DNA from: Podospora anserina
Lineage: Eukaryota
Assembly (NCBI GenBank): GCA_017654855.1
Contig: CM030336.1
Coordinates: 3,286,001 to 3,350,000 of the forward strand
Direction: 5' to 3'
Length of the DNA: 64,000 nucleotides
The stretch's first letter is position 1, and each line of letters starts with the position of its first letter. A model generated the notes under the pieces. The model was not told where the DNA came from, searched no databases, and saw only the letters and a list, made by a program, of their open reading frames with translations. The position numbers were made by a program, and so were the translations under genes. Of this stretch, positions 35,780 through 64,000 are shown one piece after another.

Positions 35780-36988
35780 ATGGACCAAGACGAAGAGGCA
35801 TATCGAATCGATCAACGACGACAGGATGAGCTGGTCATCATCACCGTGGTTTTCACGTCGCTGTCCATCCTCGTCGTCGGCACCCGCACCTTTGTGCGGG
35901 CCGTCTTGATGAGGAAATTCGGCGCCGATGACTGGACCATGTTGGGGGCCTTGGTAGGTTGATGGGCTTCTCCGCTCGATACGTCCATCATTCATGAAGC
36001 TAACCTGCCTGTCTCACCACCAGCTCTTCTCCTGCGGGTATCTCGTCGAAATCCTCATCATGAAGTACAACGGAGTCGGCCACGCAATAACCACCTTGAC
36101 AGTTGACAACATGCTCATCTTGATCAAGGTGACGTTGGCCATCCAGTGTACCTACTACGCATGCGTCAACTGCATCAAGTTCTCCATTCTGTGCATGTAC
36201 CTTCGTATTGGTACGTCGACTGGCTCTTCCCATCTCGCCCTCGCCATTCATTTCACTCTTGCTGACAGTTCTGCCTCTCCACAGCCGTGACAGAAACACT
36301 CCGATATGCATGCTTCGGCCTGATAGGCTTCCACGCGGTGTTCTTCATCATCTCTCTTACAACCACCCTTGCGCAGTGCCAGCCTCTCGAGAAGATGTGG
36401 GATCTCACCAGTGTGGCCCCAGGCACGTGCATCAACACCACCGCATTCTTTTACTTTACGTCCGGCTTCAACATCTTGACCGATATCCTCATTTTTGGCC
36501 TCCCCATCAAGACCTTGATTGGCATCAACCGCCCCCGCAAGGAAGTGTACGCTCTTGTTGGCGTGTTTTGCATTGGCGCCTTCGCCACTGTCATTGCCAT
36601 CATCCGATTGCACACCATCATTGTCTACACCACCGCCGTCGATCCTTTCCGAGAGTCCATTCTCGTCAACCTCTGGTCCGTTCTCGAGGTCAACATTGGC
36701 ATCATCTGCGCCTCCGCGCCCGCTCTGAAGCCCCTGTTCCACCCCCAGGCACTTCGAGAGGCGAGATATGGTAGCAGCGGCGGCCCGCCAAAGCGGACGG
36801 GATACCACTACCATTCACGGGACAAGAGCGGCACAGAGATCAAGAGCAATATCAGGGTTGAGCAGGAGTTCAGTGCCCGGAGTATCAACTTGGGACCCAT
36901 CCCCAGCAACACCGCCCAGGTAGTCGGGGGGAGGGAACAAAACTCGGATCAAGACAGTGTGGATAAAATCTTGCAGGATCGGTATTAA
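35780..36988 (+). CDS. PTH11-like integral membrane protein (fungal rhodopsin-domain/GPCR-like, no CFEM)
   Basis: VGTRTFVR...KFGADDWTM, IKFSILCMYLRI, QCQPLEKMWD, NILTDILIFGLP, WSVLEVNIGIICASAPALKPLF. Introns 35954-36023 and 36211-36284. Confidence 0.9.
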
Positions 36989-37954
36989 ACAATAGTGTCT
37001 TGGGATTGTGAGTTACAAGGATGGGAACGGCGCGGTGATACCAATTTCTTTTGTCTTTGTCTTTTGGGTATGGGTCCTGGAAGGATATTTACCTCGGCAT
37101 ATAGGATTTATTTAACCTTTCGGTCAGTTAAAAATGTATAATAATATCATGGAGACACAAACATAACGACTAACGATTTCTTTTATTGCGCATCAGGCCT
37201 ACATCATTGCTGAACCGTAAGGAAACTACTGACGATTAGTACAAACATCAGAATTGTTGCCCTACATCGAGTATCAGCCTGTCAGGCGGCTTCCACGCCT
37301 ATGACTTCCAGGGACCTCGGGCGGACTCCTCAATCGTGTTGATGGCATCAAAAGGGGCAGTAGTGTCGCCACTGCTCACCGTGCCTTTTAAGTTCTATTT
37401 GCCAACTATTATCTCTGACCATGCTCTTTGTTTTCGGGGAGATACATGTTGCGGACAACTTATACGTTCATTATTCCCTTAACTGTTCGCATGTAAACAT
37501 CGCAAGACAGCTGTGCTTTGGTGTGAAAGCGTGTTTCACGGGTTTGTAAGCACGTTGCCCAGATTCTCCCCTTTTAACATCACAACCCGTCTATGTGCTT
37601 CTAGTATTCTTCCCGGCTTGCTCGAATATCATAAGAGTCTTTGGGTGCATGGACACACTGAGCTCGACGCTGCTGTTGTTTAGTGCTATGAGGTACTGTT
37701 AGTAAGCCGGGACTGTTTTGAGATGAAGGGGAAGTTTTATAGCTTTGAACAAAACTATATAAGTCGAGGCTACTGATACACCTGGTTGACACGAGCATGG
37801 CTGCTAAGCAAACATCTGTCAAACATAAAATCTCCAATGATATTGAAACATTACTGTTTGTGTTGAAGCTGTGAGTAGATGTGTTCTAACTCTAATGAAA
37901 CATGATTTATATAGCTATTATAGAGGAAGGTGTGTGTCACAGTTAAGCTAACGG

Positions 37955-38317
37955 TGTGACGAACCCCTATCCAGAACCCCTGAAAGAGATACTTAGTTGA
38001 AGGTGCTTCTCAACAATTAGTCCGGTGCAGGTAAATAGTGCACAACAATGGCTTGTCTCAATCACAATAGTGTGATACCAACGAATGTGACTTGTATTGC
38101 ATACTGCGGAACTATCTACCTGCTATCTGGTTCCTCCGTATAGATAGACCTGTGGATCACCTGGATCACGTTCCCCAAAGGTGATCTGGATCATTTTTTC
38201 TTCCTGTGGCTCACTACGCTCACCGTGAGTTCGTCGCTCCACTTCCAATTGGTCAGTAATGACTGGCTAGGGGTGTCCCGCGCTCCGTGCGCTAGCTCTT
38301 GATCAGCGATTGTGACT
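37955..38317 (-). mobile_element. Solo Ty3 LTR, U3 type A (363 bp)
   Basis: Starts TGTGACGAACC and shares ~195 bp up to CTCCGTATAGATAGACC with the other LTRs. Ends ATTGTGACT. Preceded by a purine tract and a 20-bp stub of another LTR (TGTCACAGTTAAGCTAACGG). Confidence 0.8.
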
Positions 38318-38539
38318 GTTGCGGAGGGTTGATGCTGGTATATTATAGAGCTTAGCTGCGGCTCTAAAGCTTAATTTTTCGTCCTTTTGGAGAGCTTCAA
38401 GGGCTAAGATTACCCTCGCTTCCTTTTGAGTAGGAGGCATATCAGATTCTAGAAAAATTCGATGTAAAGTGCAAAGAGGACGCGTCGCGCGAGGGAGTGC
38501 GACACCCACTGATATGTACGACTCACTGATAATATACGT
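38318..38539 (-). mobile_element. 5' end of a pogo/Fot1-family DNA transposon (TIR plus HTH-psq start)
   Basis: TIR begins ACGTATATTATCAGTGAGTCG next to TA at 38540-38541. ORF MPPTQKEARVILALEALQKDEKLSFRAAAKLYNIPASTLR is truncated by the LTR. Confidence 0.8.
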
Positions 38540-38725
38540 TATAGATATCTTGATACTTTTGAGAATTTAGAAGTATATATTGGTTAGATTTCTACCCTCT
38601 TTTTCACTAATATTTCCTTTATGTAGTGGATAAACTTACTTTTTACTTTAGCTGATTCCTACCTGTATAGCTATTCCCACACTAATAACCCATTACTAGA
38701 AGCTATTCTTACCCTGCTTACACTT

Positions 38726-39095
38726 TGTGACGAACCTCTGTACAGAACCTCTGAAAGGGATACTAGTTGAAGGTACTTCTAACAATTGGTTCGGTGCAGC
38801 TAAACAGTGCACAACAAGATGTCTCGATGTAAACACAAGATGCCGTGAATATAACTGTGAATTGCATACTGCGGAACTGTTTATCTACACCAGCCAGTTC
38901 CTCCGTATATATAGACCTGTTTATCACCATTATTACCAGTGATAATGTCGATTATCACTCGTCGTTCACCGAAGGCTGGTGATAATCGCGATTATCACCC
39001 TTGGCGCTAGTGATAATCTGACTTCCCCACTTTTCCGTTCCTAGTGGTTGGACGGGTCGCGCCCCGCGCTCCCCACTTATGTCAGGTCCGTGACA
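38726..39095 (-). mobile_element. Solo Ty3 LTR, U3 type B (370 bp)
   Basis: TGTGACGAACC...GTGACA. Conserved half runs to TATATATAGACC, followed by a distinct GATAA-palindrome module. Confidence 0.85.
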
Positions 39096-40496
39096 CCACC
39101 CCACTACAACTATCTTTAATTACATAACCATAATACTAGGAAACCACAATAATTGAACTAGAAACAGATGAATCAGATGATTCTGCAGCCTCCTTGCAGG
39201 TGCGTGTATTATGGCCTGGCTTACCGCACACGCCACAGCACTGAATCTTCGGACGAGATCCCCTTGCACCACCACTACTTTGTCAATCTTTCTGGATTAC
39301 CTGCTTACCTACAGCCTTTTGATCCAGTAGATCCTGTGCCTCTTGTACAGTAAGTGACCCTCCAAGCCGCACACGTATTTTTTTGGCTTTCCGGCGCTTA
39401 CTTAATATCTCGTTAGTTTTACGGAGTGTAGTATTTTTTGTACGAAGTAGAGCGACCTAATATATTACAGTTATTATATTTTTAGTAAGCTAATTTATAG
39501 TAATTAATATTAAAGTCGGGGAACTATTTTAATAGTTAATAATATAAGTTTTAATAAACGTTAATTATAAATTAGCTTCTCGAAAGTTATATAGTATTTG
39601 GGAGACTTAAAGTTATATAGTGCCGGGCTATAAGTTTAAAAGTATTAGCGTACGAAACTTTATATTTAGTTTAGAAAGTACTCTCTTTAAATTGTACGGT
39701 ATAAGGTTAGTACCCGTAAAGCTACTCTATATATTTTTCTTTATTATAGAAGCGAAAAAAGCTTTACGGAAAGTATAAAGGAACTTAAGTTTACTTATAT
39801 AATTAATATATATACGTATTAAATCCTCGATCTAGCGACCGTATATTTATTTTAATAATTTAAAGTAATTAATATTAAGTAATTAAAGGAAGTAGGAGGA
39901 GTATAAAGGTATATAAAGCGTAATAATATTATTCTATTAATAATAACGTTTAAATTCGGTCGAGTAGTAACTTTCGTAATTATCGAGGATTAATAACCGG
40001 TATTTACCTTTTATATAAGACGTTATATAATAATCGAAGTATTTAATTTAATTTAGGCCTACCGTATTAATAGTTTAATTATTATTAATAAGTATAATAT
40101 ATTAAATAAATAATAAATTATATTTAGTATATTAATTAGTAAAGTAGTATTACGCGATTAAAATAATAAAAGAAGGAATAGTTTAGTTAAGGGTATTAAT
40201 TTCCTAAATTATTATTATTTATTTGCGGTTATTAAACTAAATTAGTTTCGCTTTATTACGGTTATTAAAAATTATAATTATTATACTCGCGAAAATAATA
40301 TTTATTATAAAGCTAGTCTCGTCGAAGTTATAAATATTATTATTTATAATACCGTACTTAATTTTAATATTCCGTATAAAAGTAAATTACTTGCTAATAA
40401 CCTTTAGATCTTTATATTTAACTCTCTAATAATTATATTTATTCGTAAAACACGTCCGAAGTTCTAGCTAACGTTTAACGAAGTTATAAGCCTATC
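39096..40496 (-). mobile_element. pogo/Fot1 transposase fragment (DDE core RIPed, C-terminus intact)
   Basis: RIP-degraded WAHNFVKR...NFDET-like core. Intact C-terminus ILSKRRKAKKIRVRLGGSLTVQEAQDLL...CGVCGKPGHNTRTC (zinc knuckle), stop near 39137. Confidence 0.85.
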
Positions 40497-40990
40497 TGTA
40501 ACGAACCCCTATACAGAACCTCTAAAAGGGATACGGGTTAAAGGTAACTTCTGACAATTGGTTCGGTGCAGCTAAACAGTGCACAACAAGATGTCTCAAT
40601 GTAAACACTAGCTACCGTGAATACAAGCTTGAATTGCATACTGCGGAACTGTCTATCTACACCAGCCAGTTCCTCCGTATATATAGACCTTGGGGCCGTG
40701 AGGTGCTCGCCCTGCTATGGGCCCGATCACTCCTAGCACATTGCATCCTGCATTGTGCTCGTCGTGCTATACCTCTGATCACTCCTAGCACATTGCATCT
40801 GCATTGTGCTCGTCGTGCTATGCCTCTGATCATCCCTAGCATCTTGCATCCTGCAGACTGCTCGTGAGCCTTGGCGCCATAGCACTTTTGCCTAGCCCTG
40901 ATCGGCTTGTTCCCTGACTTCCTGAATGATTGGCTAGGGGCGACCTGCGCCCCACATGTGGCGCGACTTGCCGTTGGGTTAACTGTGACA
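40497..40990 (-). mobile_element. Ty3 LTR, U3 type C (494 bp), nearly free of RIP
   Basis: TGTAACGAACC...AACTGTGACA. It is the reverse complement of the 44721-45214 LTR and carries two copies of the ~52-bp U3 repeat. Confidence 0.9.
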
Positions 40991-43868
40991 TAAAGTAATT
41001 AAAACGTATAGTATTACCTATACTTAAATCCTTTTATACTTTTTAACTTCGTAATATAATATATAATACGCCGGCTATTACGTTAAAAGTATAGGTTCGA
41101 TTTCCGTCGAGGTTCTTTTATATTTAAATTTATAAATACTTTTTTATAAATTTAAATATAAATCTCCCTTTTTATTACCGGTAATACTTTTTTATTTTAT
41201 AATAATAGAAACGTATAGTATTAATTAAGTTTAGATTTCTTTATACTTACTAACCTTATAATATAATACGTAATACGTTAACTACTACGTCGAAAGCATA
41301 GGTTCGATTCTTATTAAAATTCTTTTAATTCTATATTATAGTTATTTAACTATAATTTAGGGCTAAATCTTTTTACTTACTTAAGTTTTAATCAGTTTAA
41401 ATATTATTAATAAAATTCTTTTTATTTATTTAAGTAATTAAAGTATACCTATAATTCCTATAAGTTATTTATAACTAAATATTTTAATTAACTAACTAAA
41501 TACTTTAATTAACTTTTATTAAACCGTAAATCTAATATCTTTTTTATATCGTACTCTTCTTTTTTATCCTCCGCTATTACCTATATATTAACTTTATTTA
41601 CCGGTAATATAGGTTTTAAAAGTAAAATATAAAAAATATATAACCGTAAATATATTATATTAAATAACTTTAATTCGAATACTATCTTTAAAATCTTCCT
41701 TTTAATTTTAAATAGGCTTACTCTCTTATAGTCTAGCTTCTTATTAGGTCTTTTAGTATATAGATTATGTATAAAAAGGAATATTATATTTCTTCCCTTA
41801 AAGTAAAGTCCCTCAAGCCTTTTAATATTATAGTATTTCCGTATTCTTTCCCTTATAAACTTTAATTTTTACTTAAATTTACCGTAAAATATATATATTT
41901 TATTTACTTTAACCCTAGCCCTAAGTACCTTAACCGTAAGTCTTTACCGTAGGTCTATTTTATATTTAAAGTTTATAAAGAACGGTATAACTTTAATTAT
42001 TTTTATTAGTAATATATTATATATTAGTTACGCTATAAATAATAATTTAACCTAATCGTTTTACTTAAAATTAATATAATTCCATAAATACTATTCTATA
42101 ATTTAATTAAACCGTTTTATTTAACCGTTCGTCGAAAGATAATAGGCCGATAACGCTTTACTTATTACCCTTAGCCTCGTTATTAATATTCTTTAAAATT
42201 TTAATACGAATTTAGTATCGCGATCTATAATAAATTCTTTTAATTATATATATATTAATATAATATACCGTAATATTATATTTATTAACTACTTTACTAA
42301 TTAAGTTTCTTTATAAAGTAAAAAATATATTTATTTAATAAGCTTATCGACTACCGTTAATATATTATTATATTTAACGCCGGTTACTATATTTTTTAAC
42401 TCCGGTAATTTAATAATAAAATCTATGGTAATTAAATTCTATAATCGTTCTATTATTAGTAGTAACTTTAGAAATCTATATAATTTATATTTCGTAACCC
42501 TTATTTTCTTATACGTATAATATAACTAAATAACTTCCTTAACGTCGTCCTTAATTCTTAATTAATTAAAATACTATTTCATCTTTTTTATAATCTTTAC
42601 GATACTTATATATTTTCCGAACTTTAATCCGTAAATCTCTATTATTAATATCGTTCTATTACTTAGTATTACGTACGCTCGATTTTTATATTATAGTCTT
42701 CCCTAACTATCCTTTTAAATACTTTATAGCTCTCGCTCTTCCTATTAATATTATATTATAATATTATTACTTAACTTCCTTTAATATTTACTAAAAATAA
42801 TTCTTTTATAATATACTATATAATACTTTATTTACGGCTATAGTAAATACTTAAAAGTACCGTCTAACGCTTCCTTAAATAATAATAGTAATTCCTTAAA
42901 TATATCTTTATAATAATCGGTACGCCTATTAAATACGTTTACCCTAGCGTTTTCCGAACTTTTTTTATAATTAATTTAAAAATTAAATTCCGAAAAAAAC
43001 TTTAATTATCGTATTTACTATACGTTAAAGACTTTCGTAGTAATAAAGTACTATAGATTTTTATAATCCGTATAGACCTATACTTTATACTTAATACTAT
43101 TAAAGTATAACCTTTATTTTTTAAACGCTTCGATAATAGCAAATAGCTTTTTATTATAGATTAAATAGTTTTAATATATTTCCTCTAGTTTCTTCGAAAA
43201 AAAGGCTACTAAATATAATTTTCTATCGTCGTTTCGTTATCTTAATTATCTACTAATCGCATAGTCTAATATATTCGCTTCGACCTCGAATAATCGATTA
43301 AAGTTTAGTAATTTAAGTACCGGGTCTTTTAAAATAACCTTTTTTAGCTTTTAAAAGGCTTACTCCTTTTCCTGCCCCCACCGGAACTCTACGTCTTTTT
43401 TAATTAAATAATTAAATAGCCGCGCAATACTTACGTACCCTTAAATAAATATTTAATAGAAATTCGTAAATCTTAAAAATTCCCTAATATATATTTATAA
43501 TTACGGTATAAACTAGTCCTTAATTATTATAATTTTTTTAAGTTCTATATAAACTTTATTTAGCGATATTAAATATCTTAAATATACTATCTTTTATATA
43601 TAGAACTCGCTCTTTTCTTTATTAATTAAAAGTCCGGCTCTATATAATACGTTAAATATCTTTCGTATGTATTATTTATATTTCTTTAAAGTACGTAAGT
43701 AAATAAAAATATCGTTAAAATAATATATTACTATTTTATTAAAGTACTTCCGGATTATATAGTTAATAAAAGATTAAAACGTTACGGGTATATTAATTAG
43801 CCTAAATAATATTATAAAATATTCGAAATAATTATAAAATATATAAAACGCTATTTTTTATTTATCCT
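40991..43868 (-). mobile_element. RIPed Ty3/Gypsy pol fragment (RT-RNaseH-integrase-chromodomain region)
   Basis: Reverse complement is collinear with ~49280-51960 of the full-length copy. YFDD-derived RT motif near 43715. Confidence 0.85.
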
Positions 43869-45736
43869 TATCACAGACTAACTATATAGCAAAGCAAAGT
43901 AGGGACTGCAGCAGGCCGTAGTAACCAGTTAAGTAACAAATAACAGCGGGGCTATAGGATAGTAGGGCGCTCACCTTTTAGCAGAGGTAAGCCGGCTCGC
44001 TAGGAGCGCTGGGTAAGCGAGGTAAGCTAGGATAGATCACTAGGAGCGCTTAGTAATCGAAGTAATCTAAGTACGGAGGTACCTAAAGGATTAAGGTCTA
44101 TATATACGGAGGAACTAACTAATATAGATAGATAGTTCTATAATATATAATTTAAATTTATATTTACGGTATTTAATATTTATATTAAAATATTTTATTA
44201 TATACTATTTAGCTATACCGAACTAAAATTATTTAGAAATTACCTTTAACTAATATTCCTTTTAAAGGTTCTAGATAGAGGTTCGTTATATATTATATAT
44301 TTACTTTAACTCTATTATAGATAAGTTAAAAGTATTAAGATAATACTATAGCCGGAAACGTTAGTATTTAGGGAAGCTCGACCTAACCTATTATCGATTA
44401 GCTTTTCGCTTATATTTAGGAGCTTAAAAATAAATTACGCTTTTCCTATAATATATTTATATAAGAAAATATTATATTTTATTAAGAGATTAGTACTTTA
44501 CGTAAAAAAGGAAAACGTATTAAGCTCGAAGTACTAAACCGGTATAGAAGTATAAAAAAAGAGTTAGGGGGATTTTTAATTTAATTTAAAGCTTACTTTC
44601 GGTATTACCTTTCTTATTTCCCGGACGAGGAATCTAAAGTTATATACACCGCATTTAAGCTTAAGAATATAGTACTTACGTAGTTCGAATCGATTTTAAG
44701 AGATTATTTCGATAATATATTATCACAGTTAACCCAACGGCAGGTCGCGCCACATGTAGGGCGCAGGTCGCCCCTAGCCAATCATTCAGGAAGTCAGGGA
44801 ACAAGCCGATCAGGGCTAAGCAAAAGTGCTATGGCGCCAAGGCTCACGAGCAGTCTGCAGGATGTAAGATGCTAGGGATGATCAGAGGCATAGCACGACG
44901 AGCATAATGTAGATGCAATATGCTAGGAGTGATTAGAGGTATAGCACGACGAGTATAATGCAGGATGTAATATGCTAGGAGTGATCGGGCCTATAGTAGG
45001 GCGAGCACCTTACGGCCCTAAGGTCTATATATACGGAGGAACTGGCTAGTATAGATAAATAATTCCGCAGTATGCAATTTAAGCTTATATTTACGGTAGC
45101 TAGTATTTATATTAAGATATTTTATTATATATTATTTAGTTATACCGAATTAATTATTAAAAATTACCTTTAACTAGTATCCCTTTTAGAGGTTTTATAT
45201 AGGGATTCGTTATACGTTATATACTTACTTTAACTTTATTACAAATAAGTTAAAAGCGTTTTTTTATTACTATAGCCTAACCCGAAAACGTTTAAATAGG
45301 AGGCGTCCCGCCTAGCTTAACTATCGAGGAACCTTCCACGGTAAACGCTAGGTCTAGGGTCACCACGGCTTAATAGTTTATCGATCGCGTTAAAAAGTTT
45401 AAAGCCGAAGCCCAGTAGACTAGGGAGTAGGTTCTTGCTCTTTCGGCGGCTAGGCCTACGTACGTAACTAAGTTTCCGGTACCGGAGCGCTATAAAGGCG
45501 GAAAGGCAAAGCTTAAAGGTTTCTTAATCTAATTTAAAACCTACTTTCGTTATTACCCAGAATAATTTAATACGGAAAAGTTAAAAGTAATATATATAAT
45601 TACCTAACTTAAAAATAAAACTTTTATTTAATTTAAACCTATTTTTAATAATTATTACGAGGTAATGGCGGAGGACTAGGAGGAAATTATTATCTAGTAT
45701 TTTCGGAGCTACCGAGCTTTCAAGGTAAAGCTTAGG

Positions 45737-48700
45737 TATTACAGTTAACCTAACGGCAAGTCGCGCCACATATAAGGCGCAGGTCGCCCCTAGCTAATTA
45801 TTTAGGAAGTTAAGGAACAAGCCGATTAGGGCTAGGCAAAAGTACTATAGCGCCGAGGCTTACGAGCAGTCTGCAGGATGCAAGATACTAAAGATAATTA
45901 AAGGTATAGCACGACGAGTATAATACAGATATAATATACTAAGAGTAATCGGGCCTATAGCAGGGCGAGTACCTTACAGCCCTAAGGTCTATATATATAG
46001 AAGAACTGGCTAGTGTAAATAAATAGTTCCGTAATATATAATTTAAGCTTATATTTACGGTAATTAGTATTTATATTAAGATATTTTATTATATACTATT
46101 TAGTTATACCGAACTAATTATTAAAAGTTACTTTTAATTAATATCCCTTTTAAAGGTTTTATATAGGGGTTTGTTATACGTTATATACTTATTTTAACTT
46201 TATTATAGATAAGTTAAAAGCGTCTTTTTATTACTATAGCCTAACCTAAAAACGTTTAAATAGGAGGCGTTCTACTTAGCTTAATTATCGAAGGATTTTT
46301 TACGGTAGACGCTAGGTCTAGGGTTACTATAGTTTAATAGTTTATTAATTGCGTTAAAGAGTTTAAAGCCGAAGCCTAGCAAACTAGGGAGTAGGTTCTT
46401 ATTCTTTCGGCGGCTAGGCCCACGTACGTAACTAAGTTCCTAGTACCGGAGCGCTATAAAGGCGGAAAGGTAGAGTTTAAAGGTTTTTTAATTTAGTTTA
46501 AAACCTATTTTCGTTACTACCCGGAATAGTTCGATACGGAGGAGTCGAAAGTAATATACGTAATTACCCGGCTTAAGGATAAAACTTTTATTTAGTTCGA
46601 ACCTATTTTTAATAATTATTATAAGGTAATAGCGGAGGATTAGGAGGAGATTACTATTTAGTATTTTCGGAATTACCGAGCTTTCGAAGTAAAGCTTAGG
46701 GAAGTATTTAAGGAATATAATAAAGGTAAGTACGCGTAAGAGAGGCTCGCGAACTTACGGTAAATATATTTAGTAGCGGAATACGTTATTTAGTTTAAGA
46801 TCGATAATCTATATAACGAGATTAACGATAAAGGATTAATATAAACCTTTTATAATAGCTTTAAAGAAAAAATAAAGGATAAGTTATATAAAAAGAAGAA
46901 GCTTAATATTATTAATAAGTATATTACTATAGTTATACGGATCGACGATAAATAATTCTAGTGTTATACGGAAAAAAGAAATTATAATAATCGAAGTTAT
47001 TACGGAAATTATTATTTTAATAATAAATATAAATAGTAATACCCGATTATTAATTACTCCGGTATTATATATTCGGGATTTATAAATATCGACGCTATAT
47101 AATAATAAAAACCGTAAAGCTAAAGCTAGGGTAGAGATAACCGTAAGTATTTTAATTACGGTAAGGTAAAATATTTTAAAAAGAATTACCGGGTATTTAA
47201 GTAATTTAAATAGAAAAAGGAAATTACTATAATAATTATTATATTAAGGGGACCGAGGATTATAAAGGTTATAATTATCGGGTATTAGTAAAGTAAAATA
47301 ATAAATTTCGAAAAAGATTTTAATTAATACGCTAAATAAAAAAAAATAAAGTTTTAAAGGTTACGGGAAGTAATAAAAAGGCTAAAAGCGAAGTATAAAG
47401 AAAGAGACTTTTAAATATTAATATTTTAAAATCGATTAATATAAATTACTATAAAAATCGTTACGGAGGTTATTAAAAATAATAATATTATATAGTAAAA
47501 AGGATTTATTAAATAAACGATATTAAAAAAAATAATATAGTAAGTATAAAATCGTTATTTTATAAAAAATATTATTATTTATAAAGCTTATATATAAAAG
47601 CCGGAAAAAATATTGGAAGGGTAAAAAAGTTATTAATATCGGGATTGCAAAATTATTAAAAAATATATTTATATTTATATAATATATACCTTATAAAAGA
47701 AATACGGTATAAGTTTATTTTAAATATCCGGAATATCGGAGAGTATTTTAATTTTAGTATATTATATATAAATATATAAAGTATTATTAAAGTAAATTAC
47801 TATACGATTACTAACCGTTCGTATTAAAATATATAAAATACTATATTAAATATACGAACGGTTAAAATATAAATAATAATATATATTTTTTAAAAAAAAT
47901 AATATTAAGTTAATACTTAAACCCAGATTACGTACTATATTTATAAGAAAAAGATAAACGATATTATTAAGTAAAGGTATTTAAATAAATAATTAAATAG
48001 AAAAACTATTATTAGATATATATATAGGAAAATATTAAATATATAAAAAACGGAAAATAGGAGGAAATTAGGCGGGTATAATTAAAAAACTTTATATTAC
48101 TAAATAACCCGGAGTAAAAAGATACTTTTAAACGATATAACTATTTAAAAAACGACTCGCGGCCCTTCGCGGGGGCCGGTAACTTTTAATAAACTACGAA
48201 CAGTATTTTCGGAAATATTAGTATAAAGTAAAAGTATAGGATAATAATCCGGTATTTATTAGCGAGGTCGCTACTATATAAAAAGGAAATAAAAAATATA
48301 AATATTTTTAGATTATAATATATTAAAAAGATATTTAAGTAGTAATATTAATAGACGGAGGTATAAAAATAAATTTAATTTCGCTATAATTTATATATTA
48401 AATTAAAATATTATAAAAAAAAAAAAAGGAATAGATTATTATATAAGGATTATTTCCGACGTAAAAGGTTTATAAAAAAATATTATCTTTAAATATTATA
48501 ATTAAAAAAAATAATTTTAATTATATTTAATATTATAAATATAAGACTTTCGAAGGATATAATTTTAAAGTAATTATAGTATAAAGACTATAATCTAAAT
48601 ATCGATTAGAAGGATAGTAATTATTTACAACTAAAAGAATTTTAAAAATATTTAATTAACGATAAAAAATTAAACGTACGTATAAAGTAAAGTATAGGAT

Positions 48701-51700
48701 AAGTACCTTCTATAATATTACTATAAGGAACTTAAAAAATAATAATATACTCTATCGATATAAGTAATAAAATTAAAAAAATAAAGTTAATAATATTAAT
48801 AAAGATATTAAAGGTTAATAAATATATTTATTATAATTATTTAAAAAAAAATAAAAAAAAACTAATACTAATAAAATATTAAAGATATTTAGCTTTTACG
48901 GCTAAATATTTAAAGGGACTTTTAAAGTAAAAACCGTAAAACTATAAAATTAAATTAAAAGAAGAAACTAAATTACGGTTATTTAAAGTTTATTATATTA
49001 ACGATAAATAAAGTAAGGAATTACGGAAATATTTAAACGAAAATTTAAAAAAAAAATATATTAAAGAATTTATATCGTTAGTAGGATACCCTATATTTTT
49101 TATATTAAAAAAAAACGGTAGTTTATAATTATATATAAATTATTATTAATTAAATAACGAAACGGTAAAAAATAATTATTTATTACCGTTAATATTTAAA
49201 TTACGAAATTAATTAGTAAGGGTATAATACTTTATATATTTAAATATATTTATCGGGTATATTTATATATAAATTAAAGAAAGAAATAAATAAAAAATAG
49301 CGTTTTATATATCCTATAGTTATTTTAAGTATTTCGTAATACTATTTAAATTAATTAATATACCCGTAACGTTTTAATTTCTCGTTAATTATACGATTTA
49401 AAAGTATTTCGATAAAATAATAATATATTATTTTAATAATATTTTTATTTATTTATATATTTTAAAGGAGTATAAATAATATATATAAAAGATATTCGAT
49501 ATATTATATAGAGCCGGACTTTTAATTAATAAAAAAAAAATAAGTTTTATATATAAGAAATAATATATTTAAAATATTTAATATTATTAAATAAAGTTCG
49601 TATAGAATTTAAAAAAATTATAATAATTAAAGATTAGTTTATATTATAATTATAAATATATATTAAAAAATTTTTAGGATTTATAAATTTTTATTAAATA
49701 TTTATTTATAAATATATAAATATTATACGGTTATTTAATTATTTAATTAAAAAAAATATAGAATTCCGGTAAAAGTAAGAAAAAAAGTAAGCTTTTTAAA
49801 AACTAAAAAAAGTTATTTTAAAGGACCTAATATTTAAATTATTAAACCTTAATTAATTATTTAAAGTCGAAGCGAATATATTAAATTATACGATTAGTAA
49901 ATAATTAGGGTAGTGAAATAACGATAGTAAACTATATTCGATAATTTTTCTTTTAAAGAAGTTCGAAGGAATACGTTAAAGAAATTTAATTTATAATAAA
50001 AAGTTATTTATTATTATTAAAGTATTCGAAGAATAAAAATTATATTTTAATAATATTAAATACGAAATATAGGTTTATATAGATTATAAAAATCTATAAT
50101 ACTTTATTATTACGAAAGTCCTTAACGTACTGTAAATATAATAATTAAAGTTTTTTTTAAAATTTAATTTTTAAATTAATTATAAAAAAGGTTTAGAAAA
50201 CACTAAAGTAAATATATTTAACCGGCGGGCCGACTACTATAAAAATATATTTAAAAAATTATTATTATTATTTAAAGAAACGTTAAATAGTATTTTTAAG
50301 TATTTACTATAATTATAAATAAAATATTATATAATATATTATAAAAAAATTATTTTTAATAAATATTAAAGGAAATTAAATAATAATATTATAAAGTAAT
50401 ATTAATAAAAAAGATTAAAGTTATAAAATATTTAAAAAGATAATTAAGGAAGATTATAGTATAAAAATTAAATATATATAATATTAAATAATAGAATAAT
50501 ATTAATAATAGAAATTTACGGATCGAAGTTCGGAGGATATATAAATATTATAAAGATTATAAAAAAAATTAAATAATATTTTAATTAATTAAAGATTAAA
50601 AATAATATTAAAGAAACTATTTAATTATATTATACGTACGAGAAAACGAGGGTTGCGAGGTATAAGCCTTATAAATTTCTAAAGTTATTATTAATAATAA
50701 AATAATTATAAAATTTAATTATAATAAACTTTATTATTAAATTACTAAAGTTTAAAAATATAGTAACCGGCGTTAAGTATAATAATATATTAACGGTAAT
50801 CGATAAACTTATTAAATAAATATATTTTTTATTTTATAAAGAAATTTAATTAATAAAGTAATTAATAAATATAGTATTACGATATATTATATTAATATAT
50901 ATATAATTAAAAGAATTTATTACGGACCGCGATATTAAATTTATATTAAAGTTTTAAAGAATATTAATAACGAAGCTAGGGATAATAAGTAAAGCGTTTT
51001 CGGTTTATTACTTTTAAACGAACGGTTAAACGGAATGGTTTAATTAAATTATAAAATAGTATTTATAGAATTATATTAATTTTAAGTAAAACGATTAAAT
51101 TAAATTATTATTTATAGTATAATTAATATATAATATATTATTAATTAAAATAATTAAAATTATATTATTTTTTATAAATTTTAAATATAAAATAAATTTA
51201 CGGTAAAGATTTAACGTTAAAGTATTTAAAGTTAAAATTAAAGTAAATAAATTATATATATTTTATAATAAATTTAAATAAAAATTAAAATTTATAAAAA
51301 AAAAAAATATAAAAATATTATAATATTAAAAAACTTAAAGGACTTCGCTTTAAAAAAAGAAATATAATATTCTTTTTTATATATAATTTATATATTAAAA
51401 AACTTAATAAAAAACTAAATTATAAAAAAGTAAATCTATTTAAAATTAAAAAGAAAATTTTAAAAATAATATTTAAATTAAAATTATTTAATATAATATA
51501 TTTACGATTATATATCTTTTATATTTTACTTTTAAAACCTATATTATCGGTAAATAAAATTAATATATAAGTAATAGCGGAGGATAAAAAAAAATATAAT
51601 ATAAAAAAAATATTAAATTTATAATTTAATAAAGATTAATTAAAATATTTAATTAAATAATTAAAATATTTAATTATAAATAATTTATAAAAACTATAAA

Positions 51701-53104
51701 TATATTTTAATTATTTAAATAAATAAAAAATTTTTTATTAACGATATTTAAACCGATTAAAACCTAAATAAAAAAAATAAGTCTTTAGATTATTATTAAA
51801 TAATAATAATATAAAAACTAAAGAACTTTAATAAGAATCGAACCTATACTTTTAATATAATAATCGATATATTATATATTATATTATAAAGTTAAAAAAT
51901 ATAAAGGGGATTAAATATAAATAATATTATATATTTTAATTATTTTAAAAAATAAAGAATATATTAACGGTAGTATTTTAAAAAGTTAGGAAAAAAGGAC
52001 CGGTTACGCCCGGGTTTAAAGAAAGGTTAAACGACTAGTTAAAGCTTAAAGAAGGATTTAAAAAAAAAAAATCGGAAGGAATAGCGGAAGCGTTTACCGT
52101 TAGTGGGCTATATAGGATAGTAAGCCGTATAGAAAACTCTTTTTCTTTCTCTTTAAAGAGCCGAGATTCGCGACGGAAAGTAATAAAGGCTCGAGCCTTA
52201 AAGGTATATAATTATACTTTAAAACGAAAAAATTTATTTAAAGTAACTTACTTTTTAGTATTTAAACGTTTTTTTTTTTTAATTAAAGGACGGATTATAG
52301 GGATAATTAAAAAAAGAAAAATTAAAAAAAAAATTTATAATTTATATTATAAATATTATAATAGAAACGATTTAAATTAATATATAGGAGGTACCGGTTA
52401 TATTAAAAGGAAATTATATATTAAAGGTTATTTTTTTTATAATAAGTATATTTAAGTATAATAAAATTAAATTTTTTTAAAAAAATATATTTAATTATAG
52501 CGATAATCAATATTTATACGAATTAATTTTTTTATATAATTAAATATAACGGTTAGGATAAGAAAGGAAAAGAATTTATAGTAAAGATACGGAAGAAAAG
52601 GAAATTAATAATTATTTTAGGAATATAATTACCGGGATATTAATTTAAAAAAAGGGGTATTATATTATAATTAATTTAACGGTAAGTTACGTTATATATA
52701 GGGCGTAAGTCGCCCCTAACTAATTATTTAGGAAATTAAGGAATAAACCGATTAAAGCTAAATAAAAGTATTATAACGTTAAAGTTTACAAGTAGTCTAT
52801 AAAATATAAGATACTAAAGATAATTAGAGGTATAGCACGACGAGTATAATGCAGATATAATGTGCTAGGAGTGATCGGGCCTATAGTAGGGCGAGTACCT
52901 TACGGCCCTAAGGTTTATATATATAAAGGAACTAGCTAGTATAAATAAATAGTTCCGTAATATATAATTTAAATTTATATTTACGGTAACTAATATTTAT
53001 ATTAAGATATTTTATTATATACTATTTAGCTATACCGAACTAATTATTAAAAATTACTTTTAATTAGTATCCTTTTTAGAGGTTTTATATAGAGGTTCGT
53101 TATA
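45737..53104 (+). mobile_element. Inner full-length Ty3/Gypsy element (7368 bp) with 442-bp type C LTRs 45737-46178 and 52663-53104; RIP-inactivated
   Basis: Both LTRs are 442 bp with one U3 repeat. TSD TTAGG / TTAAA (G>A). Order gag, zinc knuckle, protease (GAC GGA GGT near 48355), RT, RNaseH, integrase, chromodomain, PPT. Confidence 0.9.
48147..48177 (+). promoter_or_regulatory. Putative -1 ribosomal frameshift signal at the gag/pol junction
   Basis: AAAAAAC heptamer, 7-nt spacer, hairpin GGCCCTT-CGC-GGGGGCC, ~200 bp before the protease motif. Homologous sites near 54555 and 60354. Confidence 0.65.
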
Positions 53105-59100: not shown

Positions 59101-62100
59101 GTAGGTCGCCCCTAACTAATTATTTAACAAATTAGAAAATAAATTAATTAAGGTTAAGTAAAAGTACTATAGCGCTAAGGCTCACGAATAGTTTATAAAA
59201 TATAAAATACTAAGGATAATTAGAGGTATAGTACGACGAGTATAATATAAATGTAATGTACTAGGAGTGATTAGAGGTATAGTATGACGAGTATAATGTA
59301 GGATATAATGTGCTAGGAGTAATCGGGCCTATAGTAGGGGGAGCACCTTACGGCCCTAAGGTCTATATATACGGAGGAACTGGCTAGTATAGATAGATAG
59401 TTCCGCAATATGTAATTTAAGCTTATATTTACGGTAGCTAGTATTTATATTAAGATATTTTATTGTGTACTGTTTAGCTGCACCGAACTAATTATTAAAA
59501 GTTACCTTCAACTAGTATCCCTTTCAGAGGTTCTGTATAGGGGTTCGTTATATATATATAATTAAAGGGAAAATATTATTAAAATATATTTTAAATTATA
59601 TAAAGGTTTTAAAAAAAAAATTAAGAAAATATTTAAAAAGTATAATAAAGGTAAATATATTTAAAACTAATTAATTAATTTTAAATAAATTCGATTTATT
59701 ATTAATTATATTACGGTATTTAGGATAAATATATTCCGTAATACGATTAACGATAAAGGGTTAATATAAGCGTTCTATAACGGGCTTAAGGAAAAAATTA
59801 AAGATAAACTATACCGAATAAAGCGACTAAAGACTACCGATAAATATATTATAATAATGATCCGTATTAATAATTAATATTATTAATATTATAAGGAGCG
59901 TAAGGGTATATGCGTATAGGGACCTTACTACTTTAATAATAAAAGGAAGAAACGGCTATACGGGACTTATATTTTAAAAACTATTTACGTAAGGCTTATA
60001 AAGGTCGATACTATTTAATAGTAAAAACTATAAAACTAAAGTAAAAATAACTTTAAGTATTTTAATTATAGTAAAGTAAAATACTTTAAAAAGAATTATA
60101 AAGTATTTAAATAATTTAAATAAAAAAAAAAGATTATAGTAATTACTATATTAAAAAAACTAAAAGTAATAAAGGTTATAGTTATTAAATATTAATAAAG
60201 TAAAGTAAAGAACTATTATCGGATATATATATGACAAAATATTAGATATATAAAAGACGGAAAATAAAAAGAAGCTAAGTAAGTATAATTAAAAGACTTT
60301 ATATTATTAAATAACCCAGAGTAAAAAAACGCTTTTAAACGATATAACCGTTTAGAAAACGATTTATAGCTTTTCGCGGAGGCCAGTAATTTTTAACGGA
60401 CTACGAATAGTATTTTTATAAGTATCGGCGTAAAATAAAAGTATAAAATAATAATCCGGTATTCGTTAGCGAAATCGTTACTATATAAAGAAAAAGTAAG
60501 AAAAATAAATACTTTTAGGTTATAACGTATTAGAAAAATATTTAAGCGGTAATATTAATAAATAGTAATACGGAAACGAATTTAATTTCGCTATAATTTA
60601 TATATTAGGTTCGTATATTATAAAAAAAAAGAAAAAATAGATCGTTATATAAGGATTATTTTTAATATAAAGAGTTTATAAAGAAATATTACCTTTAAAT
60701 ATTATAATCGAAAGAAAAATAATTTTAATTATATTTAATATTATAAATATAGGATCCTCGAAAAATATAATTTTAAGGTAATTATAGTATAAAAAATATA
60801 ATTTAAATATTAATTAAAAGGATAATAATTATTTACGATTAAAAAAGCTTTAAAAGTATTTAATTAATAATAAGAGATTAAGCGTACGTACGGAATAAAA
60901 TATAAAATAAATACCCTTTACGGTACTACCGTAAGGAGTTTAAAAAGTAATAGTATACTCTATTAATATAGATAGTAAGATCGAAAAAATAGGGTTAACG
61001 ACGTTACTAAAGATATCGGAGGTTAATAAATATATTTATTATAATAATATAGAGAAGGGTAAGAAAAAGGCAGTACTAATAGAATATCGAAGATACTTAG
61101 TTTTTACGGCTAAATATTTAAAGGGATTTTTAAAGCGAAGACCGTAGAATTACGAAATTAAGTTAAAAGAAGGAACTAAATTACGGCTATTTAAGGTCTA
61201 TTATACTAACGATAAATAAAATAAAGAATTACGGAAATATTTAAATAAAAGTTTAAAAAGAAAATATATTAAGGAATTTATATTATTAGTAAGATATTCC
61301 GTATTTTTCGTATTAAAGAAAAATAGTAGTTTATAATTATATATAGACTACTATTAATTAAATAATAAAATAGTAAAAAATAGTTACTCGTTACTATTAA
61401 TATTTAAATTATAGAGTTAATTAGTAGGGGCGCAATACTTTATACATTTAAATATATTTATCGGATATACTTATATACGGATTAAAGAAAAAAATAAATA
61501 AAAAATAACGATTTATATACCTTATAATTATTTTAAGTATCTCGTAATACTATTTAAACTAATTAATATATTTATAACGTTTTAATTTTTCGTTAATTAT
61601 ATAATTCGGAAGTACTTCGATAAAATAATAATATATTATTTCGATAACGTTTTTATTTATTTATATACTTTAAAGAAATATAAATCATACGTACGAAAGA
61701 TATTTAACGCGCTATATAGAACCAAACTTTTAATTAATAAAAAAAAAGCGAGTTCTATATATAAAAGATAATATATTTAAGATATTTAATATTATTAAGT
61801 AAAGTTCGTATAGAATTTAGGAAAATTATAGTAATTAAAGATTAGCTTACGCTATAATTATAAATATATATTAAAGAATTCTTAAAGTTTATAAATTTTT
61901 ATTAGATATTTATTTATAGGTACGTAAATATTACGCGGCTACTTATTTATTTAATTAAGAAGGACGTAGAGTTACGGTAGGAATAAAAAAAGGAGTAGGC
62001 TTTTTAAAAACTAAAAGAAGTTATTTTAAAGAATTTAGTATTTAAATTACTAGACTTTAATCGACTATTCGAGGTCGAAGTAAATATATTAGACTATATA

Positions 62101-64000
62101 ATTGGTAAATAATTAAAATAACGAAACGATAATAGAAAGCTATACTTAATAACTTTTTTTTTAAAGAAGTTAAAGGGAATATATTAAAATTATTTAATTT
62201 ATAATAAAAAATTATTTACTATTATTAAAGTATTTAAAGAATAGAGGTTATATTTTAATAATATTAAGTACGAAATATAGGTTTATACGGATTATAAAAA
62301 TCTATAGTACTTTATTATTACGAAGGTCCTTAACGTATAATAAATACGATAATTAAAGTTTCTTTCGGAATTTAATTTTTAGATTAATTATAAGAAAGGT
62401 TCGGAGAACGCTAAGGCAGACGTACTTAGCCGGCGAACCGACTATTATAAAGATATATCTAGAAAGTTATTACTATTATTTAAGGAAGCGCTAAACGGTA
62501 CTTTTAAATATTTATTATAGCCGTAAATAAAGTATTATATAGTATATCGTAAGAGGGCTACTTCTAATAAATACTAAAGGAAGTTAGGTAACGATATTAT
62601 AGAGTAATATTAATAGGAAAAGCTAGAGCTATAAAGTATTTAAAAAGATAATTAGGGAAGACTATAGTATAAGAATCGAGCATACGTAAAGCTAAGTAAT
62701 AGGACGGTACTAGTAATAAATATTTATAGGTCGAAGCTCGGAGGATATATAGGTATTATAAAGATTATAGAAAAGATTAAATAGTACTTTAATTAATTAA
62801 GGATTAAAAACGACGTTAAGGAAGCTATTTAGTTATACTATACGTACGAAAAAACAAAGGTTATAAAGTATAAGCTATATAGATTTCTGGAGCTACTATT
62901 AATAGTAAAATAATTATAAAGTTTAATTATAATAAACTTTATTATTAAATTATTAAAGTTTAATTATAATAAACTTTATTACTAAATTATTAAAGTTTAA
63001 AAATACGGTAACCGGCGTTAAGTATAATAATATATTAATAGTAGTTAATAAGCTTACTAAGTAAATATATTTTTTATTTTATAAAGAAATTTAGTCGGTA
63101 AAGTAATTAACGGACGTAGTATTATAGTATATTATAATAATATATATATAACTAAAGGAATTTATTACGGATCGCGATACTAAATTCGTATCGAAATTTT
63201 AAAGAACGTTAATAACGAAGCTAAGGATAGTAAGTAAAGCGTTATCGGCCTACTACCTTTAAACGGACGGTTAAACGGAACGGTTTAACTAAATTGTAAA
63301 ATAGTATTTACGGAATTATATTAATTTTAAGTAGGACGATTAAATTAAATTATTATTTATAGCGTAACTAATATATAATATATCGTTAATAAAAACCACT
63401 AAAGTTATATTTTTCTTCGCGAATTTCAGCTATAAAATAGATTTACGGTAAGGACCTACGGTTAAGGTACTTAGGGCTAGGGTTAAAATAAATAAAATAT
63501 ATATATTTTATAGTAAATTTAAGTAAAAATTAGAGCTTATAAAGGAAAAGATATAGAAATATTATAATATTAAAAGGCTCGAGGGACTTTGCTTTAAAGG
63601 AAGAAATATAATATTCCTTTCTATACGCAATTTACGTACTAAAAAATTTAATAAAGAACTAAACTATAGGAAAATAGGCCTATTTAAAGTTAAAAGAAGG
63701 ATCTTAAAAACTGTATTCAAATTAAAGCTACTTAGTATAATACGTCTACGGTTATATACCTTTTATATTTTACTTTTGGAACCCGTATTACTAGTAAATA
63801 AAATTAATATATAGGTAGTAGCGGAAGATAAAGAAGAAAAAAACGATTTAAAAGAAATATTAGATTTATAGTTTAATAAAAGTTAATTAAAGTATTTAAT
63901 TAATTAATTAAAATATTTAGCTATAAATAATTCGTAGGAACTAAAAATATATTTTAATTACCTAAATAAATAAAAGATATTCTACTAGTAATATTTAAAC

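Follow-up and report, generated by a model that had tools for sequence, protein, structure and literature searches.

The locus analysed here lies in a 64-kb window of Podospora anserina DNA, the window being the whole stretch that was studied, with positions counted from its first letter. LTRs of four types, A to D, sit there at the edge of a RIP-degraded Ty3/gypsy nest of at least 26 kb. An earlier note on this DNA had counted four LTRs; the window contains eight, the further four being C-type copies. Three of the LTRs (A, B and C1) are on the minus strand, so the coordinates 37955, 38726 and 40497 mark their 3' ends, and D is on the plus strand. The features are as follows.

37955..38317, minus strand: LTR A, 363 bp (core 37955-38151, U3 38152-38317), not RIPped
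38152-38195, minus strand: GATC/GTGATCC array of LTR A
38726..39095, minus strand: LTR B, 370 bp (core 38726-38918, U3 38919-39095), not RIPped
38919-39095, minus strand: U3 of B, with six GTGATAA sites in inverted pairs
40497..40990, minus strand: LTR C1, 494 bp (core 40497-40690, U3 40691-40990)
40703-40855, minus strand: 51-52 bp tandem repeat of C1, three copies
40991..43865, minus strand: internal-region fragment, heavily RIPped, matching 49286-51975 at 82%
43869..44290, plus strand: LTR D, 422 bp (U3 43869-44093, core 44094-44290)
43869-44093, plus strand: U3 of D, holding 40-bp repeats and GGTAAGC/AGTAATC units of 9 bp in tandem
44291..44720, plus strand: leader after LTR D, colinear with the 524-bp leader of C2 and C3 and more diverged
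44721..45736, plus strand: LTR C2 (44721-45212) and its 524-bp leader, a tandem duplicate of 45737-46700 (82%)
45737..53102, plus strand: full-length-sized element of 7.37 kb, from LTR C3 to LTR C4
45737-46176, plus strand: LTR C3, with two 52-bp repeats
46177-46700, plus strand: leader of the C3 element
46701-52662, plus strand: internal region of the C3-C4 element, with an RNase H-like match and integrase-like motifs
52663-53102, plus strand: LTR C4
53103..59550, plus strand: second tandem unit, an internal region without leader plus LTR C5, 85% identical to 46701-53105
59059-59550, plus strand: LTR C5, C-type
59551..64000, plus strand: third internal-region unit, running past the window end

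A and B adjoin fragments of a pogo-like transposon, and the 20 bases on the left side of A (37935-37954) look like the 5' start of an LTR in reverse orientation. Upstream of LTR B, the G-rich flank GTGGGGTGG may be what is left of a polypurine tract. By eye, no target-site duplications of A, B or C1 were recognised in the flanks. The nearest named relatives of a flanking gene are from Podosporaceae (Triangularia, Apiosordaria and Cladorrhinum; 42-56% identity).

A shared LTR core is joined to largely unrelated U3 segments

We compared the four LTRs by BLAST against the 64-kb window and by MAFFT alignment. A, B, C1 and D have in common a 3' block of 192-197 bp that runs from AGGTCTATATATACGG to the LTR 3' end (BLAST E-values of 1e-27 to 1e-73 for the four LTRs against the window), which bears out the claim that a block of about 190 bp from the TATA box to the 3' end is common to all four. 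This block starts with AGGTCTAT(A/C)TATACGGAGGAAC, ends in ...GGTTCGTCACA and carries the TATA-box motif TATATATA at the core start. The termini TGTCAC...GTCACA, or RIP-changed forms of them, were present in 8/8 LTR copies of the window, and the 5' termini lie at a sensible distance from the core (AGTCACAA in A, TGTCACGG in B, TGTCACAG in C and TATCACAG in D). The copies have the TG...CA termini, internal TATA box and polypurine tract before the 3' LTR that mark LTRs in general, the polypurine tract AAAAAAAGGGG preceding C4 and C5, as well as the conserved 3' half and the subfamily-specific U3 preceding the TATA box that mark LTRs of the element crapaud. The cores of B and C1 are 90.7% identical, with 5 transversions, whereas the core of A is only 76-77% identical to the others, with 11-21 transversions and ~10 gap columns. 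The notion of one LTR core thus holds for the shared block but is too simple for A, whose core is clearly diverged; long separate descent would explain part of what sets A apart, so that swapping onto one core accounts for the pattern only in part.

Local alignment of the U3s, with 300 shuffles for each of the six pairs of A, B, C1 and D, gave a significant likeness between A and C1, in a 29-bp block (GGRGCGCRGG..CCCCTAGCCARTCATT) matched by 0/300 shuffles. The other five U3 pairs did not align significantly, with 23 to 218 of 300 shuffles reaching the observed score. With the A-C1 block as the exception, then, the segments upstream of the TATA box are largely unrelated, as had been proposed.

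Each U3 carries its own motif array

We judged motif excess in A and B against 500 dinucleotide shuffles, and tandem repeats with TRF. The arrays proved real in all four types: A repeats GATC, B has palindromes of GTGATAA, C repeats a unit of 51-52 bp in tandem, and D has repeats of 40 bp and of 9 bp. In particular, the U3 of A holds 5 GATC (1.07 expected) and that of B 6 GATAA (0.47 expected), counts reached in each case by 0/500 shuffles. In A, CTGGATCA occurs three times, with two motif sites 9 bp from each other, at -17 and -8 relative to the start of the core, and an inverted pair farther upstream; B contains a perfect 22-bp palindrome (GGTGATAATCG/CGATTATCACC). The repeat of C has a period of 51 bp, with 3.0 copies, 86% matches and a TRF score of 222. 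In the alignment, three copies of this repeat are present in C1, C2 and C5 and two in C3 and C4, and a variant short of one 51-bp repeat also appears in contigs of two runs. The U3 of D combines a 33-nt repeat (82%) at 40-bp spacing with 9-bp tandem units.

The motif positions of B coincide with those of A at -8 as the window reads, but at -17 only if 38934 is given its majority-read base; the motif at these positions is GTGATCC in A and GTGATAA in B. Elsewhere, D has GGTAAGC pairs spaced by 9 bp and C has ATGCA pairs spaced by 6-7 bp. Among the variants listed (40 of 873), the base that most reads carry at 38934 restores a seventh GTGATAA in B, and the spacer base 38989 inside the B palindrome varies. 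A motif GTGAT(C/A) common to all four U3s was considered (3 sites in A, 6 in B and 2 in C1) and was dropped for D, where it depended on taking AGTAATC for a RIP-changed GTGATC; the paralogous repeat within D has GGTAAGC, for which a transversion would be needed.

Reads break at the boundary between core and U3

Read depth was taken from one public Hi-C run labelled with the same organism, covering A, B and C1 with matches of at least 85% likeness, and is to be read as an order of magnitude only. Against a lowest-bin baseline of ~40, the depths were ~1530 (A), 3600 (B) and 7450 (C1) for the cores, together ~300-fold over the baseline, and ~135 (A, distal part), 885 (B) and 1770-2700 (C) for the U3s. 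Since the U3 depths exceed the baseline, these data point to multiple copies of each of the U3 types A, B and C and to an abrupt break shortly before the TATA box. Reads and contigs matching the C1 or B core pass into other sequences precisely where the core meets the U3 (2249 loose-ended reads at 40690 in C1, 8 contigs at 38918 in B), and loose ends with diverse flanks were found at the LTR termini 38726 and 40497.

The breakpoint upstream of the TATA box is common to the types; simple recombination during first-strand transfer would place it in R. A metagenome search with two conserved core words returned 0 matches in a first scan, and two metagenome matches to these words were set aside as chance, lying inside unrelated coding DNA without TATA or core context.

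The internal region is probably that of a degraded gypsy element

Between the LTRs lies what appears to be a gypsy pol wrecked by RIP. When translated through its stops, written as X, it gives an RT_RNaseH_2 match (E=3.3e-5, below the Pfam cut-off), and integrase-like strings such as ITDRDIKF...TNGXTEWFN can be seen by eye in the printed frame. A crapaud element has gag and pol (RT, RNase H, integrase and chromodomain), a full length of ~7.3 kb and ~800 bp of LTRs; the C3-C4 element measures 7.37 kb, and chromodomain and gag were not detected in copies with a GC of 0.10-0.25. The same leader follows the D-, C2- and C3-type LTRs. Together with the breaks of reads and contigs at the core/U3 boundary, this shared leader upholds the view that one element family carries alternative U3 segments.

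Discussion

Fourteen crapaud LTR subfamilies that differ in the U3 "preceding the TATA-box" have been described (Westerberg et al. 2024, PMC10787394), in line with the earlier note, which has crapaud LTR subfamilies differ in the 5' half, and the pattern was first noted in the Enterprise preprint (10.1101/2020.03.25.007153). That study counted 1455 crapaud LTRs of ~400 bp in seven genomes, with solo LTRs mostly unRIPped, and found two different LTRs in 7/150 full copies (PMC10787394). The LTRs A-D resemble those of crapaud in belonging to a Ty3/gypsy element, in their length of ~400 bp, and in keeping the 3' half conserved while varying only in the part of U3 that precedes the TATA box. Crapaud is the most abundant repeat; as in the window, its solo or fragment LTRs are unRIPped and its full copies RIPped, and its internal region is common to LTR types that are mixed within one element or array. 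The element is therefore probably crapaud, a name given on architecture, abundance and host family; the labels A-D were assigned independently of alignment to the published library and of the LTR1-14 numbering. Our comparison brought out no biological difference between A-D and crapaud. The crapaud paper offered enhancer selection on the U3 as a hypothesis, called the promoter binding sites unknown and does not describe the motif content of each U3 (PMC10787394).

Modular U3s occur in other systems. Murine leukaemia viruses carry 72-75 bp tandem enhancer repeats in U3, for which enhancer function and a role in tissue tropism have been shown experimentally. Type C resembles simple retroviruses in having a 50-75 bp U3 unit tandemly duplicated by the core promoter in variable copy number, here 2 or 3 copies of 51-52 bp; the retroviruses are animal elements. 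In plants, the U3s of Tnt1A, Tnt1B and Tnt1C respond to different stress signals; we know of nothing comparable for crapaud. Unlike crapaud, the Tnt1 superfamily is a plant Ty1/copia element without RIP. As with A-D, Tnt1, Retrolyc1 and Retrosol of Solanaceae conserve their coding region and the LTR outside U3, and distinct U3 versions define subfamilies, a 'modular evolution' read as adaptation of regulation (PMC1838419). In hybrid Ty1/Ty2 LTRs of Saccharomyces cerevisiae, as cited in PMC10787394, recombinant LTRs likewise combine promoter parts, and transcription-factor site number and measured expression level are altered; unlike A-D, these involve only two parental types and a copia-type element.

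We consider it highly probable that A-D are different LTR subfamilies of one Ty3/gypsy chromovirus-type element at the edge of its RIP-degraded nest, with the core kept and the upstream U3 replaced. The core promoter with its TATA box, R and U5 would have been kept in all copies, presumably because transcription start, strand transfer in reverse transcription and integration need these parts, and in separate lineages unrelated stretches of 170-300 bp would have taken the place of the upstream U3, each having grown through duplication of a short motif, in tandem or as inverted pairs. Most likely, copies or co-packaged RNAs recombined or underwent gene conversion, and each variant was then amplified as a subfamily. 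As to the role of the variable U3, we lean, with slightly less than even confidence, towards an upstream activating region that controls the timing and strength of subfamily transcription.

A substantial minority possibility is that the arrays do not wire subfamilies to regulators at all, the upstream U3 being merely the least constrained part, diversified neutrally or by chance through many recombination and slippage events in a past burst, after which the unrelated variants were amplified. PMC10787394 names this alternative, the varying number of 51-52 bp repeats, with its shorter variant in contigs, is an outcome expected of slippage, and A, B and D are each read from a single copy. The arrays are, however, strongly non-random in A and B, and the restored seventh site, the variable palindrome spacer and the matching positions of A and B hint at constraint, these points being few and post hoc. 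It is far less credible that A, B and D are LTRs cut at the TATA box and fused to unrelated flanking DNA, the least probable reading of all. Target-site duplications around A, B and C1 were missing by eye and A and B abut the pogo-like fragments, yet all four LTRs have a canonical 5' terminus, the U3s of A and B appear multi-copy in reads, and A shares its significant 5' block with C.

It is very improbable that divergence of the U3 halves leaves RIP a shorter stretch of homology to act on and so shields new subfamilies. C1 is almost free of RIP (4/253 C/G sites changed), C2, C3 and C4 have a smaller fraction of C/G sites mutated in the U3 than in the core (0.09/0.41, 0.25/0.52 and 0.45/0.57), and the GC of D is 0.47 in the U3 but 0.20 in the heavily RIPped core. 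C5 is the reverse (0.44 in the U3, 0.24 in the core), so that U3 is not consistently spared among the five C-type copies; D and C2-C5 are all RIPped regardless of U3, and the main target is the ~6 kb internal region common to all types. This part of the earlier note does not survive, since RIP evasion was tested and rejected in PMC10787394 on the grounds that the U3 measures <200 bp and that RIP spares solo LTRs in any case. Only slightly less improbable is that the arrays are bound by an element-encoded regulator, the product of an antisense zinc-cluster gene lying between pol and the 3' LTR, with U3 type and regulator changing together. About 1 kb of sequence between the pol-like frame and the 3' LTR is unassigned, and palindromic pairs such as those of B fit dimeric binders, but the published diagram of crapaud shows only gag and pol (PMC10787394) and the U3 motifs are not CGG-type half sites. 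Pfam matched 0/6 antisense frames when two copies were translated with X for each stop, but these copies are RIPped to a GC of 0.10-0.25 and hence uninformative.

Sites for GATA factors of the AreA/NIT2 type follow the rule HGATAR, with at least two close together. Of the four types, B alone has clustered HGATAR, with six TGATAA in a stretch of ~100 bp where 0.47 would be expected, and the U3 motif count gave 0 GATAA sites in A and none in C or D. The proposal of GATA factors for A and B therefore stands, as a prediction from sequence, for B with its six canonical HGATAR sites and fails for A, which has GATC(C) and not GATA. A short ACAATG-like word is the sole feature from which an HMG-box or mating-type factor may be predicted for C.

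With A-D taken as subfamilies of one element, the pattern of their U3s was published in 2024, so that the finding is real but mostly known: the modular U3, the enhancer hypothesis and the failed RIP-escape idea are already in print (2021 preprint, 2024 paper, 2025 preprint). What is new is the motif-level description only, including the matching motif positions of A and B, and its discovery value is small. The window is a compact illustration, with four U3 types within 6.4 kb and unmutated solo-type LTRs beside RIP-wrecked tandem elements. We think it unlikely that the U3 variants, rather than being arbitrary replacements, were rebuilt on one shared scheme, paired motifs of 6-7 bp beside the core promoter, with the motif exchanged at every site; if this were true, entire arrays would have changed their binding specificity together, perhaps to suit different paralogous host factors or a regulator of the element's own, which would amount to a natural experiment in how promoters are rewired. 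As to what subfamily-specific U3s may bind, a question raised by the 2024 paper, the description gives concrete, testable sites, namely the six TGATAA of B, the GATC pairs of A and the position-matched pairs of A and B.

Eight LTR copies share a core and differ in U3

The GC content of the window is ordinary (~0.50-0.57) up to ~37 kb, where an AT-rich block (GC 0.10-0.43) begins that runs to the window end. The earlier note had reported four LTRs here; a BLAST comparison of these with the window found all four in place and raised the total to eight by adding four C-type copies. The copies, with end coordinates refined after BLAST, are as follows.

37955-38317, minus strand: LTR A
38726-39095, minus strand: LTR B
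40497-40990, minus strand: LTR C1
43869-44290, plus strand: LTR D
44721-45212, plus strand: LTR C2 (C-type)
45737-46176, plus strand: LTR C3 (C-type)
52663-53102, plus strand: LTR C4 (C-type)
59059-59550, plus strand: LTR C5 (C-type)

Read in sense orientation, 8/8 copies have in common a block of 192-197 bp, here called the core, that extends from AGGTCTAT(A/C)TATACGGAGGAAC to ...GGTTCGTCACA, in keeping with the ~190 bp from TATA box to 3' end described earlier. All eight also start with TGTCAC(A/G)G or a transition-changed form of it (LTR A with AGTCACAA). The proposal of a single core holds for B, C and D, which are close: the five C copies differ from one another by transitions and 0-1 transversions, B and C1 are 90.7% identical (5 transversions, 1 gap column), and D differs from C by 2-5 transversions. 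It needs qualifying for A, whose core is 76-77% identical to any other (11-21 transversions, ~10 gap columns); LTR A is accordingly an older or separate lineage, R-U5 included. Within the conserved block, ~20-55 nt beyond the TATA box (on the minus strand at 40636-40672, for example), is an inverted repeat, GGAACTG...CAGTTCC, shortened to 5 bp in type A, which could be a hairpin at the transcript 5' end or a protein site.

Upstream of the core (U3), local alignment of the four U3s, with 300 shuffles each, yielded a sole significant block, 29 bp that A and C1 share within the 5' portion of their U3s (0/300 shuffles). The other five pairs gave no significant block, the observed score being reached by 23 to 218 of 300 shuffles, so that the earlier note is right to call the sequences before the TATA box largely unrelated.

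Each U3 carries its own motif array

As the earlier note had proposed, each U3 has a distinct array. By counts uncorrected for the choice of motif, GATC occurs 5 times in U3-A (1.07 expected) and GATAA 6 times in U3-B (0.47 expected), each at 0/500 dinucleotide shuffles. U3-A contains CTGGATCA three times together with the inverted pair GATCACCT/AGGTGATC; in U3-B, 6/6 GATAA sites extend to GTGATAA, and among them are a perfect 22-bp palindrome and an imperfect one of 20 nt. U3-C is a tandem repeat of period 51 (3.0 copies, 86% matches), shorter by one repeat in C3 and C4 than in the other C-type LTRs, and U3-D repeats a 33-nt unit (82%, spacing 40 bp) that holds the 9-bp tandem units GGTAAGCGA and AGTAATCGA.

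A point absent from the earlier note is motif position: relative to the core start, motifs begin at -17 and -8 in A and at -8 in B, whose -17 site is GTAATAA in the window and becomes GTGATAA in the majority of reads (38934 T>C, 516/769 reads). Judging by this match in position, which was picked by eye, A and B may share one architecture in which GTGATCC is swapped for GTGATAA. GATA factors had been suggested for both types; only B has canonical sites for them, and A has GATC. The HMG reading of type C is a weak one, drawn from one short word, and the earlier transcription-factor assignments in general are weak.

Public reads suggest that U3 types A, B and C are multi-copy

Twenty public runs from seven studies, all under one organism label, each contain at least half of the words sampled from 36500-41000. 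Raw reads of one Hi-C run, together with contigs from three runs, were mapped to 37900-41050 at >=85% likeness, a stretch that ends short of D; type D is a single observed copy. Summed raw-read depth (lowest bin ~40) was ~1530 over the A core and ~135 over the A distal U3, ~3600 over the B core and ~885 over its U3, and ~7450 over the C1 core and ~1770-2700 over the C U3, values that Hi-C bias, multi-mapping and the likeness threshold limit to orders of magnitude. On these figures U3 types A, B and C would each be present in several to tens of copies, and the core in ~300.

The true boundaries are marked by loose ends. Those at 38726 and 40497 have diverse flanks (2100 and 1893 reads, agreement 0.35-0.38), and the core runs on into other U3s in 2249 loose-ended reads at 40690 and in 8 loose-ended contigs of another run at 38918. 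Core and U3 meet at a sharp breakpoint that coincides with the 5' edge of the core and lies ~6 bp before the TATA box. The interval 38088-38398 is covered by exact contigs in three runs and 38371-38755/38759 by exact contigs in two of those three, and one more spans 38461 to 38755; strains thus have the A-to-B locus in common.

Two unmutated pieces of a pogo/Fot1-like DNA transposase border LTRs A and B, in inverted order relative to one gene.

38303-38566, minus strand: N-terminal helix-turn-helix-like piece (...EARVILALEALQKDEKLSFRAAAKLYNIPASTLRN), cut by LTR A
39136-39456, minus strand: C-terminal piece with a CCHC zinc knuckle (CGVCGKPGHNTRTC) at its end, adjoining LTR B

Over the transposase fragments read depth is ~18-60 times baseline, which makes this family multi-copy as well. 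At 37935-37954, plus strand, 20 bases (TGTCACAGTTAAGCTAACGG) resemble the C-type LTR 5' start (17/20) and adjoin the LTR A 3' end in opposite orientation.

A RIP-mutated element in tandem array

The element bounded by and including C3 and C4 is 7.37 kb long, and the polypurine run AAAAAAAGGGG precedes C4 and C5. The internal frame, translated with X at its 211 stops, contains integrase-like strings and a weak RT_RNaseH_2 match (E=3.3e-5, 24.3 bits vs a cut-off of 29.8); the element appears to be a RIP-wrecked Ty3/gypsy retrotransposon. The nearest named relatives of a neighbouring gene are in Triangularia, Apiosordaria and Cladorrhinum, all Podosporaceae (4 matches, E <=0.001).

Self-comparison showed that 46701-53105 recurs with 85% identity at 53110-59553 and a further time between 59551 and the window end, as tandem units each of internal region plus LTR; that 44721-45736 duplicates 45737-46700, an LTR with a 524-bp leader; and that 41173-43865 repeats internal region 49286-51975 in inverted orientation. 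The 430 bp after D are colinear with the leader.

45737-64000, plus strand: array LTR-internal-LTR-internal-LTR-internal, period ~6.4 kb, 85% identity, leader retained in the first unit only
37000-64000: crapaud-rich, RIPped AT block, at least 26 kb long, extending past the window end

Upstream of the array's internal regions, LTR plus leader stands three times running (D, C2, C3). The array possibly arose by unequal recombination or from a leader-only deletion derivative. A 2025 preprint (10.64898/2025.12.02.690432) describes centromeric regions, 44-90 kb long, that are enriched in crapaud in these species, and the AT block may thus be a centromere edge.

Mutation is all but absent from LTRs A, B and C1 (4/253 C/G sites changed in C1), and D and C2-C5 carry heavy RIP mutation.

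Mutated fraction of U3 and core
C2: U3 0.09, core 0.41
C3: U3 0.25, core 0.52
C4: U3 0.45, core 0.57
C5: U3 0.44, core 0.24

The idea that U3 divergence limits RIP finds no support here: U3 is spared relative to the core in C2-C4 and the relation is reversed in C5, so that no consistent U3 protection was found across C2-C5, in agreement with the published rejection of RIP escape as an explanation of the crapaud LTR subfamilies (PMC10787394).

At 40989-41340, nearly unmutated C1 directly adjoins an internal fragment with heavy RIP mutation (GC 0.21), in which the final ~700 bp of the internal region are missing and 140 bp are locally duplicated (40991-41130 vs 41198-41337). C1 probably did not start out as the 3' LTR of this fragment.

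Discussion

These LTRs belong to one element family with a conserved TATA-R-U5 and unrelated U3 segments that start at a common point; their motif arrays were made by local duplication, and read depth in one run is evidence that at least three U3 types are multi-copy. The reading of U3 as modular is correct and describes a phenomenon already published for crapaud, and the motif-level detail alone is new. Our full-text literature search turned up two crapaud papers only and, in the library covered, no motif analysis of crapaud U3s. Westerberg et al. distinguish 14 crapaud LTR subfamilies by the U3 before the TATA box and put forward enhancer selection as a hypothesis; among 1455 LTR copies in seven genomes, they report that 7/150 full copies had two different LTRs, that internal regions did not track LTR subfamily and that solo LTRs were mostly unRIPped (PMC10787394). 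The closest general parallel is found in the Tnt1 superfamily, where it is U3 that distinguishes the subfamilies ('modular evolution'; PMC1838419).

The variable U3 segment would act as an upstream activating region; recombination or gene conversion would give rise to new segments, which would then spread. That U3 diversification has been largely neutral is a plausible reading to which we give appreciable, if minority, weight; that the U3 types give the element distinct regulatory wiring is a prospect we put only a little short of even.
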